Source: a virus. Taken from it: DNA of 64,000 nt. Shown piece after piece: positions 1 through 42,703 of the stretch. The position numbers and the translations under genes are program-made. Position 1 is the stretch's first letter. Each line of letters starts with the position of its first letter. The stretch is taken from the IMG/VR virus record IMGVR_UViG_3300025576_000001, positions 12,217 to 76,216 of that record; one strand, given 5' to 3'. The notes below the pieces were generated by a model. It was not told the origin of the DNA, made no database searches, and worked only from the letters and a program-made list of their open reading frames with translations.

Positions 1-1
1 G

Positions 2-259
2 CTCCCGATCTGCCAGGGCGGCGGAATGCGGATCACCTGTGAGGACCCGTCTCAGATGGGCGGCTGGAACGACGCCGGGATCATGCTTCCGCCCACGGAC
101 GCGAGCCCATCGCCGATGATGCCAGCACTCTGGTATTGCCTGTACGGGTTGCGATGCCCGGCGTGTTGGAACGCAGGGACGGGGGCTTACTCCATCCCAG
201 CGGCCATCATCTGCGACGCCTCGACGGGTGGCGTTCCGGCGTGCGCGCCGTGCGACTGA
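2..259 (+). CDS. 5'-truncated Cys-rich hypothetical protein
   Basis: Frame is open from the window start to TGA at 257-259; Cys-rich (CPACW, CAPCD). Confidence 0.5.
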   Translation, partial: LPICQGGGMRITCEDPSQMGGWNDAGIMLPPTDASPSPMMPALWYCLYGLRCPACWNAGTGAYSIPAAIICDASTGGVPACAPCD

Positions 260-460
260 GGACGCCATGACGAAAGGTGCGAGCGGAATGCTTGGCGCGG
301 AAGCCTGCCGGCGTCGAGCTTGTCGTGTTGTGGAAAGACGACGGCTTACGCGGTCGTGCCCTAGCCGCCCACCGCGCGCACGTGCATCCTGACGGGACGG
401 TTGTTCTCCCTGACTGCGCCGTGATGACGAAGCTCTACTGATTGGTGTACACTAGCCGCC

Positions 461-1071: not shown

Positions 1072-2010
1072 GTGGCCGAGTCGCTGTATCAGGAAGTAGT
1101 CAGCGCGCACCGCCGCACGCTCGACCGCCTCATCGACCGCGGCTCAGTCGAGCGCCTGCGAGCTGTCTACATGAAAGCCACCGCAGAAGTCCTGGCGAAG
1201 CTCGAACGATTGGGGAAAGGTTCAACCAGTTTTTCTCACCATCACCTTCAGATGGCGCTGGCCCAATTGAAAGCCGGGCAACTCTATGTGGACGACCAGA
1301 TGATCGGCGAACTGAACTCAGCCACCCGCGAGGCCCAAGTTGAATCGCTCCATATGCTCGTCAGAGATTATAAACGCCTTGAAAAGCACTTCACGGGTCA
1401 CGCGCCCGTCCTGCCAATTGAGGAGGCGGCGCGGTTCGCCGGCGTGATCGACAAGAGCCGCAGTTCGCTCCTGCGCCAGCACGCGACCAGTATCAAGCGG
1501 TACGGCGCGGCCGTCATTGACCAGACCCAGGAGGCGATGTCGGTGTCGCTGGCATCAGGCGAGACGCTGGACGGAACGATCGCCAGCGTACACAAGGTCA
1601 TCGGCGGGAACTTCTGGCGAGCCGAGATGGTGGCGCGTACGGAGTGCGCGTTCGGAGCCAACGTGGCTCACAGTGACGGCATCAAAGAGATCGCACAAGA
1701 AGACCCCGCAATCCTCCAGCAGTGGGTGGAGTTCTGTGGGCCAGACGGAAAGCCCCTCGACGCTCGCGTGGCAGTGGACAGCATCGCGATTCACGGCCAG
1801 GTGACGGACCCCGGCGGAGAGTTCACGATGCCGGAGACCGCTCCCTTTCCAGACGCCAAAGGACGAACGAAGGTTGACGACTCCTTGGTGGGCAAATCGT
1901 GGGCGGTGCCACCGTGCCGGCCCAATGGACGAGAGACCGTACTGCCATGGAAGAAGGAATGGAAGACGCCGGGCTGGCGCTACAAGAACGGCCGGCGTGT
2001 TCCCGCCTAG
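1072..2010 (+). CDS. phage minor head / head morphogenesis protein (Mu gpF, SPP1 gp7-like)
   Basis: RAEMVARTE motif, then W..., D.RV..D...HGQ and PPCRPNGR (a HPNCRC-like variant); lies upstream of scaffold and capsid genes. Confidence 0.8.
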   Translation: MAESLYQEVVSAHRRTLDRLIDRGSVERLRAVYMKATAEVLAKLERLGKGSTSFSHHHLQMALAQLKAGQLYVDDQMIGELNSATREAQVESLHMLVRDYKRLEKHFTGHAPVLPIEEAARFAGVIDKSRSSLLRQHATSIKRYGAAVIDQTQEAMSVSLASGETLDGTIASVHKVIGGNFWRAEMVARTECAFGANVAHSDGIKEIAQEDPAILQQWVEFCGPDGKPLDARVAVDSIAIHGQVTDPGGEFTMPETAPFPDAKGRTKVDDSLVGKSWAVPPCRPNGRETVLPWKKEWKTPGWRYKNGRRVPA

Positions 2011-3278
2011 CCGCGCAAGTGGTGGTAGATCCCAGCCTCCGGGTTCTCCCCGGGCTTGATGTCCTGGCGAATCTCGACCGGCGGCTCGTGAGGTCCGTCG
2101 TAGAACATCGAGTAATCCCTGAACGCTCGCCCCAGCATCTTGCGTTCGGTGGCCGGGCCGGCGTCGAGCCAGTCGGCGCCCGCCTTGAGCTTACCGGCCC
2201 GCAGCCGCAGCAGTGACTCGAAGTACTCCTCGTAGGCGGCACCCACGCGCTCGAAGTTGTTGTTGCGCTCGACCCAGGCGCGGCACGTGAACGGGTCGAT
2301 TCTGTCGGCATTGCGGGCCGCCCACACGTACTCGTCGAAGGTGTTACAGCGCCAGCCGGTGTACCCGTGAACGACCGTCTCGGTGAAGCCGCCGAAGTCA
2401 CTAGAGATCACGGGGCACCCAGACGCCATCGCTTCGAGCGCGACTGCGCCGAGCGGTTCCACGTAGCGAGTAGGCGACAGCAACGCCTTCGCGGATCGCA
2501 TGAGTTCGCGACGCACCTTCAGCGACGAGATGCCGGCGTACTTGGCGCCCTGGGGCCACTCGGCCACGAACGGGGAAGCATCGCCGCGGCCCGTGAGGAT
2601 GATGGGCGTCTGGAGTTCCCGCGCGACCTGCACGGCGATGCGGACCCCCTTGGGCTCCAGCATGCGCGTCTGCACCAGGAAGAAGTCTTGCTTGTCCCTT
2701 GTCGGCACGACCGGGCCGAACAGGTCCAGGTTGAGCCCCAGCGGAATGACCTGCCTGTACCACTTGTCGCCGCCCCAGTTGCCCTCGAGGCCCTCGTGGA
2801 AGTGCCGCCAAGCGTTCGACAGATACACGCGGAACGGTGAGACGGCCTTCGGGTAGCCGATCCCGACCTCCACCACGATCTGCGGCAGGTCCTTGATGGC
2901 GGGCTCGTAGGGGCAGAGCGTCGCCACGATAGAGCTGTAGGGCTCGCCCCCGCGGGCCAGGACGATCTGGCGGACCTTCGCCGCGAAGTCGTTCCAGTGC
3001 TTCCCGTAGGCGTGGTCGATCGACAGGATGAACGGCTCCAGCGGCCCACGCGACCCGTACAGTACGCGCCAGACCTCCTCGCTGGCGCCGTCGACGTGCT
3101 CGACCCCGGCGGGCACCACGCTCCCAGGCATTCCGATGTGGATGACCTCGTGGCCGCGGTCCACCATCATCTTGGCGAAGTACCAGAGTTGCTCGGTGAA
3201 CGGGCAGACGTTGACCAGGTCCTCGTCGCGAGGATCGATGGTCTGTGTATGGGCGAAACCTGTTACAAAAATTCGCAT
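2007..3278 (-). CDS. glycosyltransferase family 4 (GT-B fold)
   Basis: RM..PKG...A and EPLGAVALEAMASGCPVISSDFGGFTETVVHGYTGW, the GT4 signature. Confidence 0.9.
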   Translation of the reverse strand: MRIFVTGFAHTQTIDPRDEDLVNVCPFTEQLWYFAKMMVDRGHEVIHIGMPGSVVPAGVEHVDGASEEVWRVLYGSRGPLEPFILSIDHAYGKHWNDFAAKVRQIVLARGGEPYSSIVATLCPYEPAIKDLPQIVVEVGIGYPKAVSPFRVYLSNAWRHFHEGLEGNWGGDKWYRQVIPLGLNLDLFGPVVPTRDKQDFFLVQTRMLEPKGVRIAVQVARELQTPIILTGRGDASPFVAEWPQGAKYAGISSLKVRRELMRSAKALLSPTRYVEPLGAVALEAMASGCPVISSDFGGFTETVVHGYTGWRCNTFDEYVWAARNADRIDPFTCRAWVERNNNFERVGAAYEEYFESLLRLRAGKLKAGADWLDAGPATERKMLGRAFRDYSMFYDGPHEPPVEIRQDIKPGENPEAGIYHHLRG

Positions 3279-3281
3279 GAG

Positions 3282-3473
3282 TTACCCCTTGAATCCCGGT
3301 GGCCTGCCCTGCCACGCCGGCTCGGGTGCCGGTGGCAGCGTGTCGCCGTCGTCCGGCATCGGGCAGGGCAAGACGATCATGCTGACCTTCTTCGCCCGGG
3401 CGTCGGCCTTGTCCCGATCCGACCAGACCGAATCGACGGCGTTGCAGCAGTGGACGACATAGACGGTCTTCAA
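3282..3473 (-). CDS. small hypothetical protein
   Basis: TTG start overlaps the stop of the upstream gene; fills the operon gap. Confidence 0.5.
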   Translation of the reverse strand: MKTVYVVHCCNAVDSVWSDRDKADARAKKVSMIVLPCPMPDDGDTLPPAPEPAWQGRPPGFKG

Positions 3474-4099
3474 TGCTCGGTGTCTTTCTTATAAGGATTT
3501 TCGCATCCGGCTTCCGACGCAAACGCGAAAAACTTCTTGCTGCGCGAGGGATGACGTAGCTTGCGCAGGGCCATCTCTTGGATCTGGCGAATCCTCTCCG
3601 GGCTCTTACCTAGTGATACGCCTATTTCGTCCAATGTTTTGTCTGCATCTCCGCCAAGCCCAAACCGTTCCGTAAGGACTTCGCTCTCAATCGGACTCAA
3701 GCTCATCAGAGCCTCGCCCATTAGACCCTCTAGCTGCTTGCGTTCCATTTCAAACTGCGGACCAAGTGCATCTCGCCTGAGCGAGTCTGGAATCAGCGCT
3801 CTTATTTCCTCAGCGTCGAATGAGCGCTCTGCCATTGGCTTGTCCACGGCCAGCACCACTTCTGGAAACAGATCCTCGGGCAGAACTCGGTAGAACTTCG
3901 CCAGCAACTGCGCACTCGGGCACCATCCGCTTTTGTCTTTCTTACTGGTGGGGGTACACCTGAGATTCTCCAGACTGACGTATACGCCATACGACATCCC
4001 AACTTTCTCGGACAGTTCGATCGTGCTGAGCCCGAGCGCTTCCCGCCTTGCCTTCAGCAAGTTGTTCTGAAGCTTCACGACCATACGAATCGCTTTCAT
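3470..4099 (-). CDS. XRE-type HTH fused to RpoD-like sigma-70 region 4
   Basis: N-term LKARREALGLSTIELSEKVG..Y..LE; C-term LSPIESEVLTERFGL...TLDEIG..LG.S.ERIRQIQ..ALRKLRHPSRS; no region 2 visible. Confidence 0.85.
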   Translation of the reverse strand: MKAIRMVVKLQNNLLKARREALGLSTIELSEKVGMSYGVYVSLENLRCTPTSKKDKSGWCPSAQLLAKFYRVLPEDLFPEVVLAVDKPMAERSFDAEEIRALIPDSLRRDALGPQFEMERKQLEGLMGEALMSLSPIESEVLTERFGLGGDADKTLDEIGVSLGKSPERIRQIQEMALRKLRHPSRSKKFFAFASEAGCENPYKKDTEH

Positions 4100-4148
4100 C
4101 GGGTTTTCGGGGCGGAAACCCCGTCCTTTAGGGCGGGGAGGAAGTCAA
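4100..4148 (+). mobile_element. 49-bp IS200/IS605 solo-hairpin remnant (LE/RE hybrid, PATE-like)
   Basis: TCAT|CGGGTTTTCGGGGCGGAAACCCCGTCCTTTAGGGCGGGGAGGAAGTCAA; shares the CCTTTAGG hairpin and GAGGA.GTCAA end with the tnpB element's right end; removing it restores an ATGA gene overlap. Confidence 0.8.
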
Positions 4149-4849
4149 GGTAGGCACACGATGTCGTATTCCCGCTTGCCGTCGTAGGGGTTGAACGGAA
4201 CCCCCGTGCGGATGTCATGGCAGCGCGGGTACTCCAGCCAGCACAGTTCCCGGTGTAGCCCCGCGATGGATGAGCCCGCGGCCTCCAGGGCGGCGCCGTT
4301 GACCTCGATGACCATGATGGGCCGGAACCGCAGGATCGTCATGCGGGCGCCCCGCAGTGCCCGAACCTCGTGCCCCTCGACGTCCCACTTGATGAGCGCG
4401 GGCGAAATCCCCAGGCGATCCAGCGGCAGCACCATGATCGGGACGTTGCCACCGGCCTTGATGCGGCTCGCTCCCACGTTGGGGTCTCGGGCGATTTCCG
4501 CAGTGCCTATGTGGTCGGAGAGTCCGGTCTGGTAGAGCTTCACGCTGGGCAGCTCCCCGCAATTGTGCTGGAGGCACGCGAACGACTCGGGCTGCGGCTC
4601 GAACGCATGGACAACGCCGGCCTTGGTGGCGTAGGCGGCCGTGTGGTCGCCGAGACTCGCGCCCGCATCGACCACCACGCCGCCCTCGGGCATCAGGTCC
4701 ATCACGAGCGGGATGAGACCGCACATGTCGGCGTCGAGTCGGTGTTCCTGCTCGATCCACCGGCTCAGGTGCGTGTCTTCCTTCAGGACGGCGATCTGTT
4801 GCTCGCCTTCGAGGCCGGGGATTGTGCCGGTGGTGTGGATGATGGTCAC
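4145..4849 (-). CDS. FkbM-family SAM-dependent methyltransferase
   Basis: VVDAGASLGDH, VHAFEP, LIKWDVEGHE..AL.GA..TI..FRP.MVIE. Confidence 0.9.
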   Translation of the reverse strand: MTIIHTTGTIPGLEGEQQIAVLKEDTHLSRWIEQEHRLDADMCGLIPLVMDLMPEGGVVVDAGASLGDHTAAYATKAGVVHAFEPQPESFACLQHNCGELPSVKLYQTGLSDHIGTAEIARDPNVGASRIKAGGNVPIMVLPLDRLGISPALIKWDVEGHEVRALRGARMTILRFRPIMVIEVNGAALEAAGSSIAGLHRELCWLEYPRCHDIRTGVPFNPYDGKREYDIVCLP

Positions 4850-5064
4850 GGAGACTTCCCCGCCGCGTCCCGCTCGGTCAGCATCTTCTCCAGCAGCAGC
4901 GCGGTCCCCGCGTGAATCAGCGATCCCTGGGCGGCACGCTCTATCGAGTGCCGGCAGAGAGGCTTCAGGTGCCGGGCCGCTTGGCAGATGCCCTGATCGT
5001 CGATGATGGCCTTGAGCCTCGCCTGGTGCTCGGGCTTGAGCGCGACCGTGTTTTTCTGCTTCAT
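4846..5064 (-). CDS. small putative DNA-binding protein leading the antisense operon
   Basis: ATG at 5064; stop overlaps the FkbM start; helical and basic. Confidence 0.55.
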   Translation of the reverse strand: MKQKNTVALKPEHQARLKAIIDDQGICQAARHLKPLCRHSIERAAQGSLIHAGTALLLEKMLTERDAAGKSP

Positions 5065-11999: not shown

Positions 12000-12610
12000 T
12001 TCGCACGGTCCACCTCCGGGATCTGGGCGGCTACGTGTCGCGCATCCCCAAGGAGCGCCACGCGGCGGCCGTGCGGGGAGTCCGCCGGTGTATGCGGCAG
12101 CGCGGGCGAGTCATCGTCAACGAGGAGATCAACGCCACGAAGCCCCGGCCGCCCGTCGACCGTCGCACCTACGCGAACTCCTGGGAGACGCTGGCGATCG
12201 AGAACGGTTGCCGCATCTACTCGACGGACCCCAAGGCGTCGATCGTGGACCGCGGCCGGCGCCCTGGCGCGGGCGTGAGCCGCGCCGGCATCGAGGCCCT
12301 GATGGGCTGGGTTCACCGGCATGGCATGGATACCGTGTCGGCTCCTGCCGCTCAGCGGGTCGCGCGCCAGCAGATGATGCAGCGGGCGCTGGGGATTCGC
12401 GCCATCACCAAGGCGGTCGCCAAACGTGAGCAAGTCGGCGCAGCGGCCCGTTCCATCGCCTACGCGATCGCGGGCGCCATCAAGAAGCGCGGTCTGTGGA
12501 TGCCGAAGGGCCTACGGGTGTTCGAGCGCGCCAGCCGGAGGATCGTCGAAGAGTGCCGCGCGGCCGTCCACATGGCGATCGCGGGCGCCGAGTTCCAGGA
12601 GCGGCACTAA
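11996..12610 (+). CDS. putative neck protein (HK97 gp10-like)
   Basis: PVDRRTYANSW...RGRRPG...WV...IA.AIKKRG pattern; basic. Confidence 0.6.
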   Translation: MIRTVHLRDLGGYVSRIPKERHAAAVRGVRRCMRQRGRVIVNEEINATKPRPPVDRRTYANSWETLAIENGCRIYSTDPKASIVDRGRRPGAGVSRAGIEALMGWVHRHGMDTVSAPAAQRVARQQMMQRALGIRAITKAVAKREQVGAAARSIAYAIAGAIKKRGLWMPKGLRVFERASRRIVEECRAAVHMAIAGAEFQERH

Positions 12611-38029: not shown

Positions 38030-38675
38030 CCCGCCTTCGTGACTTCTTCGGCTGCCTGGTCTGCATCGCGCTCGTGACGGCGGCGTTCTTCGCGACCGAC
38101 GGGAGGACAGCATGATCCTGTTTCTCGTAGGCTTCCTGTTCGGCGCAGTGGTGATGTACGGTGGTCTTGCGTTGTCGGATTTACCGTTTTTGCAGGAGTG
38201 CAGCCGCCTTATCGCAGACGCAAGGAAGTTGAACGACGATACCGCTTCCTACTTCAAGGGGAGGTCAGCGTGACCACCGGCAAGGCGGCAGTTTTTGCGG
38301 CTGAGTTCAACCGCAAGCGCATGGACTTCGGCGGTGTCGCGAATTGCCAGCCATCGCCCGTCGAGTGTGTGCGTGCGGGCTGCGAGGCCATGCGCTACCT
38401 GATGCTGTCCGAGGAGGACGAATCGCAGCTTTCCGTGGCTGACCAGGACATCTACACCAACATCGTGGGAGAGCACTAACATGACCCAATCCCTCGAATT
38501 TCGTCGGGCCATCTTCGCCGCTGCCTTCATTGCCGAGGGCAACAAGTTTCAGGGCCGCACGAAGGAAGACTGCATCCGTGAGGGGCTGCACCAGGTGCGC
38601 AGTCTCCAGTCCGTTGACCTGACCAAACTCACCCTCGACGAGCAAGGCGAACTTGCGGAATTGGTGACACCATGA
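38026..38675 (+). CDS. four small coupled ORFs (38026-38115, 38112-38273, 38270-38479, 38481-38675)
   Basis: Chain of GTGA/ATGA overlaps with RBSs; the first two are hydrophobic. Confidence 0.5.
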
Positions 38676-39855: not shown

Positions 39856-40318
39856 CCATGACCTACCGATACGGCGGCATCTTTCCTCCAGGCAAGAAAC
39901 CAACGCAGGATACAACTGCGCCAGTCCTGAACGCCCATGAAGCCGGTCTGCGCGAAGGCCGACAGCAGGCCCTCAAGTGGGTCGCCGATGGCTTGGAAAA
40001 ACTCGGGCCGATCTTCGTTAAGGGCGGCTGGCCGGCGAAGACCTTGCTCGAAGGCTTCGCGGCGCAGGTGCAGAAGTATCTGCGCACGGGCGACCTGCCG
40101 GGAACGGGAGACGACGAGTGACCGAAAAAGAAATCCGCAAGCGCCTCGCAACCGCGAAGCCGGCGGAAGTGCCCATCGTGTGCCTGTATCTCGTCGCTGC
40201 GGTGTTCGAGGGACCACCGCTGGAACTTCCCGACCCCGCCGAATGCCGCCGTGCCGAACGCGCAGCCTACTGGCGACGAGTCCACAAGCGAGTCCGCGAG
40301 ATGGAGCAACGCCAGTGA
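39852..40318 (+). CDS. two small hypothetical proteins (39852-40121, 40118-40318)
   Basis: Coupled overlaps. Confidence 0.55.
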
Positions 40319-40782
40319 GCCGCGCCTCTCACCGTGACGCCATCCACGCGCTTCTGGACGCGGGGCTTGATCTCAAGTCCATTTCAGAGCGCTTGGGGCT
40401 GAAAGAATCAACGGTCTTTGTCCATCGCACTTATTGGCGCAAGGTGCGCAAGTTAGGACCACTCAGGTACGGGCCGCGGAAACGCAAGCTCGTGGTCGAG
40501 CTGGACAAACAGGGACTCTCAATCCCGGAGATAGCGGCTCGCATGGGAATCAGCCGGGAAGCGGTAGCGTCGCACAGAAGGCTGGCTGGCTTACCCCGAA
40601 AGGAAGTCAAATCGCCGGGTGCGACCGGCAAGACGTGGAAGAAGGAAGCCGTCCAGGTGCCGGACCTCGGGCGGTGCCGATGGTGCGGGCTCAGTAATCC
40701 CTGCACATGCACGGGTCCGCGCCACGCGACTGACCATATGGGCCGGCGCGAGGAACCGAACTTTGCGCTGGGGAACGGCTGA
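40315..40782 (+). CDS. tandem HTH DNA-binding protein with Cys-rich C-term
   Basis: GLDLKSISERLGLKESTV and GLSIPEIAARMGISREAV. Confidence 0.7.
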   Translation: MSRASHRDAIHALLDAGLDLKSISERLGLKESTVFVHRTYWRKVRKLGPLRYGPRKRKLVVELDKQGLSIPEIAARMGISREAVASHRRLAGLPRKEVKSPGATGKTWKKEAVQVPDLGRCRWCGLSNPCTCTGPRHATDHMGRREEPNFALGNG

Positions 40783-40785
40783 ACC

Positions 40786-42118
40786 TTGACATCCTCCGCC
40801 CCCTAAAGGAGGCGGATTCCCGGCTTCACAACCGAGCTTTTCTGCTTCAACTCTGACTGCACCGCATCCCGAAGAACACGATGGCTAACACCAGATCCGC
40901 AGACTTCACCCTTTCGGGCTACGTCGAGTCCCGACGCAAGGATATTCTTTGCTGCATTCTCGTCTCGGTCGTGCTGTACCTGGCAGCTTGGGCAAGTCCA
41001 GTTGCGCACGTCGAGAGGCAGGAGCTCGACGACGTGGCCACAAGCAGAGCATGTCTTGCTGCTGGGATAGAAGCGGTCGACCTTGATCAACTCCCGGCCG
41101 TACCAGGCGCACTTGTACGCGAGGACGGTCAGGAGCATGCGCCAAGCAGCGTCCGAGATTACTCGGGCGAGGCAGTGGTTGCGGACCATTCCAGCGACGT
41201 TCAAATCCTCGACTACGATCACTTGGTTCTCGCGAACGATTCTTGTCGAGAGCTTTTGCATTTGGTCGCGGCGACGGTCTGCCACCTTGGCATGGAGACG
41301 AGCGAGCTTGATTCGAGCTTTGTACCTGTTGCGGCTTCCTTTCTGTTTGCGGGCGAGCGCACGGGAGAGGCGCCGCTTGCGCTTCAACTCTCGGGCGTCG
41401 TGCTTGAGGTTGGGAATCTTCTCCCCCGTGGAGAGCGTGGCCAGGGCGTTGATGCCCAGGTCGATGCCAACGGCGGTCTTGAGCTTGGGCAGGTGCTTGA
41501 CGGCCTTGTCCTCGCAGAGCAGGGACACGTGCCAGCGCTGGGCGGCGTCCAGCGATACCGAAGCACTGGACGGCTCCGCCCCCTCTGGCAACGGGCGGCT
41601 CCAGCGGATGTCGAGGGGCGCCTCCATCTTGGCCAAGGTGAGCTTGCCAGCGGCGAAGCGGAACCCGCTGCGGGTGAACTCGGCCGAGCCGCCCGCGCGC
41701 TTCTTCTTGAAGCTGGGGTACTTCGCACGCTTGGCGAAGAAATTGGAGTAGGCGGTTTGCAGATGCCGCAAGGTCTGCTGGACGGGGACGCTCGACACTT
41801 CGTTCAGGAAGGCAAGCTCGGGCTCCTTCTTCCAGCCCGTGAGCGCGGTGCTCTGGGCCGCGTACCCGATGGACTTTTTGCCCGAGGTCCACGCTTCACT
41901 GCGCTCGTGCAGGGCGCGGTTGTAGACGAGACGGCAACACCCGATGGTCCGACGAAGCAAGACCTCTTGCTCGGCGGTCGGGTAGAACCGGTACTTGAAT
42001 CCTCTCAACGGCACACTTGCAGAATACGCTGTGCGCGTGTAAAGTCAACCATCGTAGCAACCGGACGGCGTTTCCTCTGCCAGCTAAAGCAGGCAGTATC
42101 CACGCCGGGGAGTATTTG
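40786..42118 (-). mobile_element. tnpB-only IS200/IS605-family element (IS1341-like)
   Basis: Minus strand: TCAT|CAAATACTCC...GATA CTGCCTGCTTTAGCTGGCAG left-end hairpin; right end GAAT CCGCCTCCTTTAGGGGGCGG AGGATGTCAA; no tnpA. Confidence 0.9.
40803..42014 (-). CDS. tnpB: RNA-guided endonuclease TnpB
   Basis: FKYRFYPT HTH; RuvC residues in GIDLG, VVEDL and DRDENAA are intact; zinc finger CSACG...CPSC. Confidence 0.95.
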   Translation of the reverse strand: MPLRGFKYRFYPTAEQEVLLRRTIGCCRLVYNRALHERSEAWTSGKKSIGYAAQSTALTGWKKEPELAFLNEVSSVPVQQTLRHLQTAYSNFFAKRAKYPSFKKKRAGGSAEFTRSGFRFAAGKLTLAKMEAPLDIRWSRPLPEGAEPSSASVSLDAAQRWHVSLLCEDKAVKHLPKLKTAVGIDLGINALATLSTGEKIPNLKHDARELKRKRRLSRALARKQKGSRNRYKARIKLARLHAKVADRRRDQMQKLSTRIVRENQVIVVEDLNVAGMVRNHCLARVISDAAWRMLLTVLAYKCAWYGRELIKVDRFYPSSKTCSACGHVVELLPLDVRNWTCPSCQVQHDRDENAAKNILASGLDVARKGEVCGSGVSHRVLRDAVQSELKQKSSVVKPGIRLL

Positions 42119-42703
42119 ATGACCCTCAACATCTCCGACTACTTTGCCGACCTGCAAGCCCACGAGTACGCGACCACGTGGCTCTACTGCGACCGGCTCG
42201 GGTACGTCACCATTGGGATCGGCTGTCGCGTCTTCAACGCCGATGCAGCGGCGGCGCTGCCCTGGGCGACTGGCAAGGATGACCCACGCGCAGCCTGGTT
42301 GCGCGTTCACAATGCGTTTGGGCCCGCGAAGCCATCGGCGCTGTACTACCAGAGCTTCAGCGACTTGCGGCTGACCATGGACGCCGTGACCGCCATGGTG
42401 GCGCAACGGCTCGAGACTGAGTTCATGCCGTGCCTGTATCGGCTGTGTCCCGGCTTCGATGACTTCCCGTTGCCCGCGCGCCGGGCACTCGTCGATATGG
42501 CGTGGCAGTACGGCGACGAAAGCAGCACCAGGGGCCTCGCGGGATTCCCGTCGATGCTCGCGGCGTGCAACTCTGACCCGCCCGATTGGGCGACGGCTGC
42601 GATCGAGAGTCACGGGGAGTGCAGCGCCGAGAGGAATGCTTGGCGGGCGCAGATGTTTGAGGAGGCTGCCAGCGCGCCAGCCGGGCCGGTGCCGATGAGT
42701 TGA
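42119..42703 (+). CDS. endolysin, phage lysozyme (GH24-like)
   Basis: HE....LY.D.LGYVTIGIG catalytic motif, ALVDMAWQYG; the true start is likely ATG 42119, just outside the IS end. Confidence 0.85.
   Translation: MTLNISDYFADLQAHEYATTWLYCDRLGYVTIGIGCRVFNADAAAALPWATGKDDPRAAWLRVHNAFGPAKPSALYYQSFSDLRLTMDAVTAMVAQRLETEFMPCLYRLCPGFDDFPLPARRALVDMAWQYGDESSTRGLAGFPSMLAACNSDPPDWATAAIESHGECSAERNAWRAQMFEEAASAPAGPVPMS

Follow-up and report, generated by a model that had tools for sequence, protein, structure and literature searches.

The DNA studied here comes from a peat-soil phage whose 76-kb genome is deposited as IMG/VR record IMGVR_UViG_3300025576_000001, and all positions below refer to a 64-kb window of it (64,000 nt, positions 12,217 to 76,216 of the record). 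On the minus strand of this window, the gene for an FkbM-family methyltransferase and the gene for a protein with HTH_3 and sigma-70 region 4 domains (the sigma-like gene) are separated by a 49-nt element (the 49-mer) at 4100-4148, which consists of 19 + 20 + 10 nt and contains a single hairpin (Table 1). As set out below, the 49-mer is, on strong evidence, end DNA of tnpB-carrying elements of the IS200/IS605 family of insertion sequences (ISs), and it is probably what remained when such an element collapsed.

Across the end of the FkbM gene and the start of the sigma-like gene, the minus strand reads ...ATC GTG TGC CTA CCT TGA cttcctccccgccctaaaggacggggtttccgccccgaaaacccg ATG AAA GCG..., with a 45-nt spacer between the FkbM stop codon and the sigma-like ATG at 4099. 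The FkbM stop codon (TGA, 4147..4145) is the complement of the TCA within the terminal TCAA of the element, and the sigma-like start codon is the complement of the CAT within the TCAT that precedes it. On the other strand, TCAA becomes TTGA, which ends the upstream frame immediately (CCT TGA), and TCAT becomes ATGA, which leaves the downstream start codon intact; both frames are thus kept and neither the FkbM nor the sigma-like protein is altered by the 49-mer. An earlier note on this DNA had stated that deleting 4100-4148 gives GTG TGC CTA CCA TGA AAG, and this and its other sequence statements proved correct when read from both strands. A 31-mer of the element occurs once in the window. The 49-mer has one hairpin and no open reading frame (ORF), and so lacks both the second hairpin and the transposase or TnpB gene of a complete IS200/IS605 element; it is a remnant, not a complete element.

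Table 1 Features at the FkbM/sigma-like junction and of the resident full tnpB element (window positions)
Feature	Position	Strand	Remarks
TCAT, left target/cleavage tetranucleotide	4096-4099	+	On the - strand, ATGA: sigma-like start codon plus one base
Left-end-type spacer CGGGTTTTCGGGGCGGAAA, 19 nt	4100-4118	+	Ends in guide tetranucleotide GAAA (4115-4118)
Subterminal imperfect palindrome CCCCGTCC-TTTA-GGGCGGGG	4119-4138	+	8-bp stem, T.G pair at stem position 6, loop TTTA
Right-end-type tail AGGAAGTCAA, 10 nt	4139-4148	+	Element terminus TCAA at 4145-4148
FkbM-family methyltransferase gene	4849..4145	-	Ends VCLP*; Pfam PF05050 Methyltransf_21, E 4e-14; PHROG 8156
HTH_3 + sigma-70 region 4 gene, 209 aa	4099..3470	-	Pfam PF04545 and PF01381; homologues
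63-aa ORF	3282..3473	-	TTG start in the window; ATG start in relatives without the sigma-like gene
Segment of element + sigma-like gene, 682 nt	3473..4154	.	Replaced by 7 nt (TGGCATA on +) in 97-98% identical relatives
Full tnpB-only IS200/IS605 element	42118..40786	-	Pfam OrfB_IS605, Cas12f1-like_TNB, HTH_OrfB_IS605
Resident element, flanking TCAT	42122..42119	-
Resident element, left-end hairpin CTGCCTGC-TTTA-GCTGGCAG	42096..42077	-	After a 22-nt spacer ending in guide GATA
Resident element, tnpB	42014..40803	-
Resident element, right end GAAT-CCGCCTCC-TTTA-GGGGGCGG	40815..40796 (hairpin)	-
Resident element, right tail AGGATGTCAA	40795..40786	-

Identity with the ends of tnpB elements

The hairpin together with the following AGGAAG (26-mer) has exact copies in 17 viral loci, and in all 17 the complementary strand meets GATGA exactly 19 nt further on, ahead of unrelated genes. 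About 45 nt past this motif on the hairpin strand, four loci (L014, L017, L024 and L025) have a 388-409-aa ORF with OrfB_IS605, Cas12f1-like TNB and HTH_OrfB_IS605 domains, that is, TnpB, and the order in them is TCAT, 19 nt, hairpin, AGGAAG, a promoter-like stretch and TnpB. Therefore, the motif represents the left end of tnpB-only IS200/IS605 elements, which have TCAT as their target. A conserved element of the 5' untranslated region (UTR) or of translation in front of many genes had been considered as well, and was dropped after the neighbouring ORFs had been recognized as TnpB. In at least eight other viral contexts, the left end of tnpB elements contains the identical 26-mer. Left ends with the exact 26-mer always have TCAT at the same distance from the hairpin, and in the wider family this distance is 16-22 nt.

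The right arm of the hairpin followed by AGGANGTCAA gave 103 matches in 99 viral loci, with GAAT in front of 67 of the matches. Their tails follow the pattern AGGA(T/C/A)GTCAA (88 AGGATGTCAA, 9 AGGACGTCAA and 6 AGGAAGTCAA), and the sequence past TCAA diverges immediately at 89 distinct viral flanks. The hairpin with AGGANGTCAA is thus the right end of the element family. The 24-26 nt of the remnant are identical in 50 of the 103 right-end matches, and its exact tail AGGAAGTCAA stands on GAAT-type right ends in L047, L111, L141, L144, L161, L162, L172, L177 and L184. In cellular DNA, the exact 26-mer was found in 47 genome contigs of Bacteria and Archaea (Actinomycetota, Proteobacteria, Verrucomicrobia, cyanobacteria and an Asgard archaeon), either as a GAAT-type right end with the exact tail AGGAAGTCAA or as a left end.

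The plus strand of the 49-mer region also matched the Rfam family HgcC (RF00062) with 31.4 bits (E 1.2e-5), which is under the gathering score of 50 bits set for the whole model, and the alignment is convincing for the 3' hairpins only. The genuine right end of the tnpB element resident in the phage matches HgcC too (21 bits), and HgcC has been reported to carry the IS1341 right-end loop (PMC4615843). Similar to the 3' ends of HgcC, sotRNA and omegaRNA, the terminal hairpin and a AGGAGGUCA-like tail align to the 3' part of the model; unlike HgcC and omegaRNA, the 49-mer has no upstream scaffold, as the alignment there falls in the sigma-like coding sequence, and no adjacent tnpB. The folding energy of the hairpin lies within the range of shuffled sequences (z -0.4 to -1.2) and is unremarkable, and the case therefore rests on sequence comparison, the structure alone being no evidence; the recurrence of the sequence, by contrast, goes far beyond what chance would produce. 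These comparisons strongly support the claim of the earlier note that the 49-mer is IS200/IS605 end DNA, in view of both its identity with tnpB element ends and the sub-threshold HgcC match.

Further arrangements of the same ends were observed. A Promethearchaeota metagenome-assembled genome (SHMU01; L142-L187) has about 35 copies of the hairpin as left end with guide GAAG and target (T/A)TCAC. Most of them lie close to the ends of contigs, a sign that an IS whose hairpin is identical to the phage one has expanded heavily in this Asgard archaeon. L013 (5061-5244, plus strand) holds a two-hairpin element of about 180 nt without tnpB, arranged as TCAT-19 nt-CCCCGTCC..GGGG-AGGAAG ... AAAG-CTCCGCCC-TTTA-GGGCGGGG-TTGATTAC, and the same two ends lie 1.46 kb apart in L022. 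Perfect 40-nt palindromes, TTGACATCCTCCCCGCCC-TTTA-GGGCGGGGAGGATGTCAA, with TCCT before the stem and the right-end tail on both strands round one hairpin, occur in L052, L060 and L064.

Spacing and guide sequences

IS608 is cut 19 nt 5' of the left hairpin foot and, at TCAA, 10 nt 3' of the right foot, and a guide tetranucleotide just 5' of the respective foot recognizes each cut site (PMC3201880). The 49-mer has the same distances (left, 19 nt; right, 10 nt). Across the collected ends, guide and cut site are complementary in their last bases (GAAA, GAGA or GATA with TCAT, GAAT with TCAA, GAAG with TCAC, AAAA with TTAT and AAAG with TTAC), and the guide/cut-site rule that the earlier note took from IS608 thus extends across the family. 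The single guide of the remnant, GAAA, fits TCAT, the left site, only and not TCAA. From the spacings and the guide rule it follows that the 5' half of the 49-mer is of left-end type and its 3' tail of right-end type, which bears out the mixed character described earlier. Its one hairpin and its guide, which matches TCAT but not TCAA, should therefore leave the remnant immobile under the canonical rules for TnpA.

Like IS608, the family has subterminal imperfect hairpins, a left cut outside the element, a right cut at TCAA and a guide 5' of each foot. It differs in its target (TCAT, not TTAC) and guide (GAAA, not AAAG), and the remnant, unlike IS608, has one hairpin, of unrelated sequence, and neither tnpA nor tnpB. 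A counterpart of the target is found in ISGst5 of Geobacillus stearothermophilus, an IS200/IS605 element with (T)TCAT as left target and target-adjacent motif (TAM), given as TTCAT (bioRxiv 10.1101/2023.03.14.532601). The cargo nuclease of ISGst5 is IscB, unlike that of the remnant's tnpB family, and the likeness noted here is that of the target/TAM.

Probable origin of the remnant

Based on these comparisons, the 49-mer is probably the collapsed remnant of an IS200/IS605 (tnpB) element, in which a left and a right end are fused round a single hairpin. Elements of this family insert 3' of TCAT and terminate in TCAA. At the junction, a full element of about 1.3 kb would have stood antisense to the phage genes, directly upstream of the sigma-like ATG, with the same 24-26-nt hairpin block (CCCCGTCCTTTAGGGCGGGGAGGA(AG)) at both ends as direct repeats. 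The core could then have been lost when the two copies of the block recombined or replication slipped between them, so that 19 nt of the left end, a single hairpin and the 10-nt tail of the right end stayed behind. Left ends with the hairpin and AGGAAG and right ends with the same 26 nt and TCAA (L141, L144, L161, L172 and others) both occur; they were not seen in one element. Collapse between the two hairpins had been proposed in the earlier note, and the mechanism itself is documented: in Haloquadratum, repeat-mediated loss of the core between near-terminal palindromes cuts a 1500-bp tnpB element down to a 52-bp terminal-only palindrome-associated transposable element (PATE) (PMC3119063). 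That such a deletion took place, and at the FkbM/sigma site, is what we infer.

The architecture of a terminal-only PATE, namely a left-end segment, one copy of the palindrome and a right-end terminus within about 50 bp, is present in the 49-mer. It shares with the terminal-only PATEs of Haloquadratum walsbyi (52-bp ISHwa23 or HqIRS46; PMC3119063) its length and order of parts, a probable derivation from tnpB (IS1341-type) elements by deletion between palindromes, and the lack of a target duplication. Fused left and right ends are reported to be common in haloarchaea, and the fused-end RNA VNG_R0052 of Halobacterium is also close (PMC4615843). Unlike the PATEs, the remnant lies in the genome of a peat bacteriophage rather than in a haloarchaeal chromosome and between a stop and a start codon, with its own terminus giving the stop, and its full parent was not found at the same site. 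The remnant itself is ordinary in kind, a terminal-only PATE of the sort that a repeat-mediated IS605-type collapse, as known from haloarchaea, would produce.

Several findings weigh against this origin. Among the relatives, neither an empty FkbM-ATGA-sigma site nor a full tnpB element at the junction was found, although the earlier note had looked to relatives for one or the other. A direct parent was not found either, and in L025, the closest full element sharing the left end has another right end. The phage has no TnpA (Y1) gene, so transposition must have used a host enzyme, and none was seen. In addition, the tail of the remnant is AGGAAGTCAA, whereas 88 of the 103 viral right ends carry AGGATGTCAA, although the A variant does occur on GAAT-type ends.

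The 49-mer might alternatively have arrived ready-made, as a terminal-only mini-element still mobilized by TnpA in trans and inserted 3' of TCAT. In Haloquadratum, the six strain-specific ISHwa23 insertions are without exception of the 52-bp terminal-only form, a finding that the authors interpreted as possible mobilization (PMC3119063), and several single-hairpin fusions with a left-type 5' part are present in viral contigs: some are of TCAT type (L125 and L049), others have a TTAT target with guide AAAA (L061/L066, L087, L115 and L126), a TTGAT target with guide CAAA (L082) or a TTAC target with guide AAAG (L091 and L137). However, these fusions differ in their 17-19-nt left parts and therefore look like independent collapses rather than copies of one mobile 49-mer, and the 49-mer itself was found at one locus only. 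Moreover, it has a single hairpin and a single guide, GAAA, that mismatches TCAA, whereas IS608 requires both end complexes (PMC3201880). Arrival in finished form is thus improbable. Still less credible, in our judgement, is that the hairpin is a functional cis-regulator (a terminator, an attenuator, an mRNA stabilizer or the 5' UTR of the sigma-like gene) or an antisense or guide-like RNA, its likeness to ISs being incidental or co-opted. The hairpin does occupy the sole gap between two otherwise coupled genes, it is stable on the plus strand (-19.7 kcal/mol), and PATE-derived RNAs are transcribed in Halobacterium (PMC4615843). But a promoter and terminator scan found no site at 4100-4148 on either strand, and the G+C-rich stem followed by a T/U run that marks an intrinsic terminator is absent. 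The IS hairpin carries a C.A mismatch when read on the mRNA strand, where it is absent from the minimum-energy fold. The 49-mer is also without the scaffold of about 100 nt of an omegaRNA, its Rfam match is below threshold, and the TnpB resident in the phage has a different hairpin. Homologous sigma-like genes in other phages have no such hairpin upstream; a conserved terminator was one of the outcomes that, according to the earlier note, would overturn its reading. Collapse of a tnpB element in place thus remains the reading that we prefer.

Relatives and the history of the junction

The relatives that have the sigma-like gene (L009-11, L031-35) are all identical to the window at the junction. 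Those without the element (L005-7, 97-98% identical) are without the whole sigma-like gene as well, so that the indel is 682 nt (3473-4154) versus 7 nt and not 49 nt; in them, FkbM ends ...TGT ATG CCA TGA, and the ATGA overlaps the ATG of the 63-aa ORF. The boundaries of the 682-nt segment are flush with TTGA/ATGA on both sides. The possibility that the whole segment is a cargo-carrying element was rejected, as no left-end-like hairpin lies near 3474-3540. Because the only element-less relatives lack the sigma-like gene, the ancestral FkbM/sigma overlap is reconstructed rather than observed.

An empty site would read …GTGTGCCTACC/ATGAAAGCG…, with FkbM …CTACC joined to ATGAAAGCG. The phage is present in 15 or more peat runs, and the contigs of four peat runs contained neither a form lacking just the 49 nt nor a full element; they break at 4115/4144 because the hairpin is a repeat. 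Of the variant forms, these runs showed only that without the 682 nt, with the same joint as in L005-7, in a contig of run X16 (an RNA library, which is not proof of transcription). Viral contigs gave 0 matches for the start of the sigma-like gene behind any base but G, blastn of 3400-4900 against a GenBank phage collection gave no match, and a metagenome scan with the sigma-like protein gave identical copies only. The homologues of this protein are 63% (P0002), 52% (P0004) and 49% (P0003) identical. The genes of distant homologues begin ATGAA(A/G) and have ordinary upstream sequence without a hairpin, which speaks for the element having been inserted rather than belonging to the gene.

These relatives also allow another history for what would still be an IS end remnant, in which no ATGA overlap ever linked FkbM to the sigma-like gene. 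An element at the ATGA between FkbM and the 63-aa ORF would have recombined with a copy upstream of the sigma-like gene of another phage, and its core would have been lost later. The sole empty state observed at the FkbM end is indeed FkbM-ATGA-63-aa ORF (L005-7 and the X16 contig), and near-identical IS copies with swapped flanks exist in L025 (window 38481.. and 266..1) and L188. The window is also a mosaic: it matches L005 exactly over 4300-4700 and L009 exactly from 4299 to about 2500, and its breakpoint, which adjoins the element, falls between 4155 and 4300. Nevertheless, swapped flanks in metagenome contigs could stem from chimeric assembly at a repeat, deletion of the sigma-like gene from an element-free ancestor through a 4-nt (TGAA) microhomology would equally yield the L005 junction, and no donor phage with the sigma-like gene in a different context was found. 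We therefore regard this flank exchange as rather unlikely, although it deserves more weight than either alternative to the origin discussed above.

Apart from this, the depth of peat metagenome contigs rises about 20-fold over 34 nt of the sigma region 4 coding sequence (3539-3572), presumably by cross-matching to cellular sigma-factor genes.

TCAT/TCAA elements at ATGA junctions

The silent fit of the remnant between a stop and a start codon is due to its TCAT/TCAA pair, and the earlier note had expected that such elements could enter ATGA overlaps without changing either protein. This was seen in three other viral contigs (L048, L138 and L098), which have full elements in reconstructed ATGA overlaps with both ORFs open. 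In L048, a full tnpB element lies antisense between the genes for a Neck1/tail-completion protein and a tail terminator (PHROG 169 and 179); the Neck1 frame is closed by the TGA from TCAA, the tail-terminator gene starts at ATGA, and the reconstructed empty site reads GATAC/ATGAGC. More generally, at 17 of the 89 right-end flanks the antisense frame that ends at the element's TGA stays open over 100 codons or more, compared with 5 and 8 flanks for the other two frames. An ATGA that opens an ORF adjoins the resident element, three TCAT-type remnants, one of the two L025 flanks (window 38481) and L188.

The enrichment at ATGA that the earlier note had proposed to look for came out as suggestive only: the ATGA at TCAT sites reaches at least 50 codons in 60% of cases, against 38% for all ATGA in the same loci (p 0.0015-0.02), in a crude comparison whose sites include duplicates and whose control is weak. 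The pattern expected from true targeting would equally result if insertions within genes were selected against in dense phage genomes. In about half of the distinct variants of the left end, CTCC lies within 12 nt of TCAT, which places GGAG 5-8 nt before the flanking ATG; this CTCC could equally be an anti-Shine-Dalgarno sequence for tnpB, and the remnant is without the CTCC/GGAG motif (…GAAAACCCG ATG).

Tentatively, these patterns may point to a TCAT/TCAA branch of tnpB elements adapted to dense phage genomes, which would insert antisense in ATGA starts or overlaps, restore the stop codon by their terminus, often supply GGAG upstream and provide, through their copies, portable joints for the exchange of modules. 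We consider this possible, though doubtful as a whole. The sigma-like gene would perhaps be among the exchanged modules, and empty alleles would perhaps be cut under TnpB guidance in co-infection. No description of start-codon or overlap targeting by TnpB/TCAT elements in phages was found in the searchable literature, the coverage of which is incomplete.

IS200/IS605 is the most abundant transposon family, and what seems worth keeping here is the context, a base-level view of how a tnpB branch can live in tightly coupled phage operons with the proteins undamaged. The elements hint at marking, and maybe causing, mosaic junctions between related phages. If the preference for start codons and overlaps is true, it would explain how tnpB persists in phages without tnpA, help to annotate short "orphan" hairpins between phage genes and make TnpB-driven homing between co-infecting phages testable.

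Full tnpB elements in the phage and in sister contigs

Full elements of the family are present in the same phage and in its relatives. The contig with L025 (IMGVR_UViG_3300029889_000052, the same contig as L005) has a tnpB element whose left end is identical to the left part of the remnant in 41 of 42 nt and whose right end differs (CAAG-CCCCTCCC-TTTA-GGGAGGGG-TCGTTGAC). Its flanks correspond to the gene start at window 38481 on the left and to window 266..1 on the right. The window reads as empty at both places (TAAcATGA at 38477-38484; TCAT/GGCGTCC at 270..267 on the minus strand), which lie about 38 kb apart. This pattern could reflect a rearrangement, recombination between two IS copies or an assembly chimera. 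L188 (IMGVR_UViG_3300039310_000211, 1794-4105) has the resident element with 99.7% identity and the same right flank. On its left, a different gene follows the ATGA (MKPWSELLKMNPEDR...), and homology to the window stops exactly at the target tetranucleotide.

The resident element of the window (Table 1) is closely packed between its neighbours. A plus-strand HTH/sigma-r4-like gene (39937-40782) ends GGC TGA ACC, directly before the TTGA of the element. At the other end, the TCAT of the element is the ATGA start of a 194-aa plus-strand ORF (42119-42703), for which no Pfam or PHROG match was obtained, and the left end puts GGGGAG 6 nt ahead of the ATG of this ORF. The stop codon of the resident tnpB sits inside the loop of the right-end hairpin.

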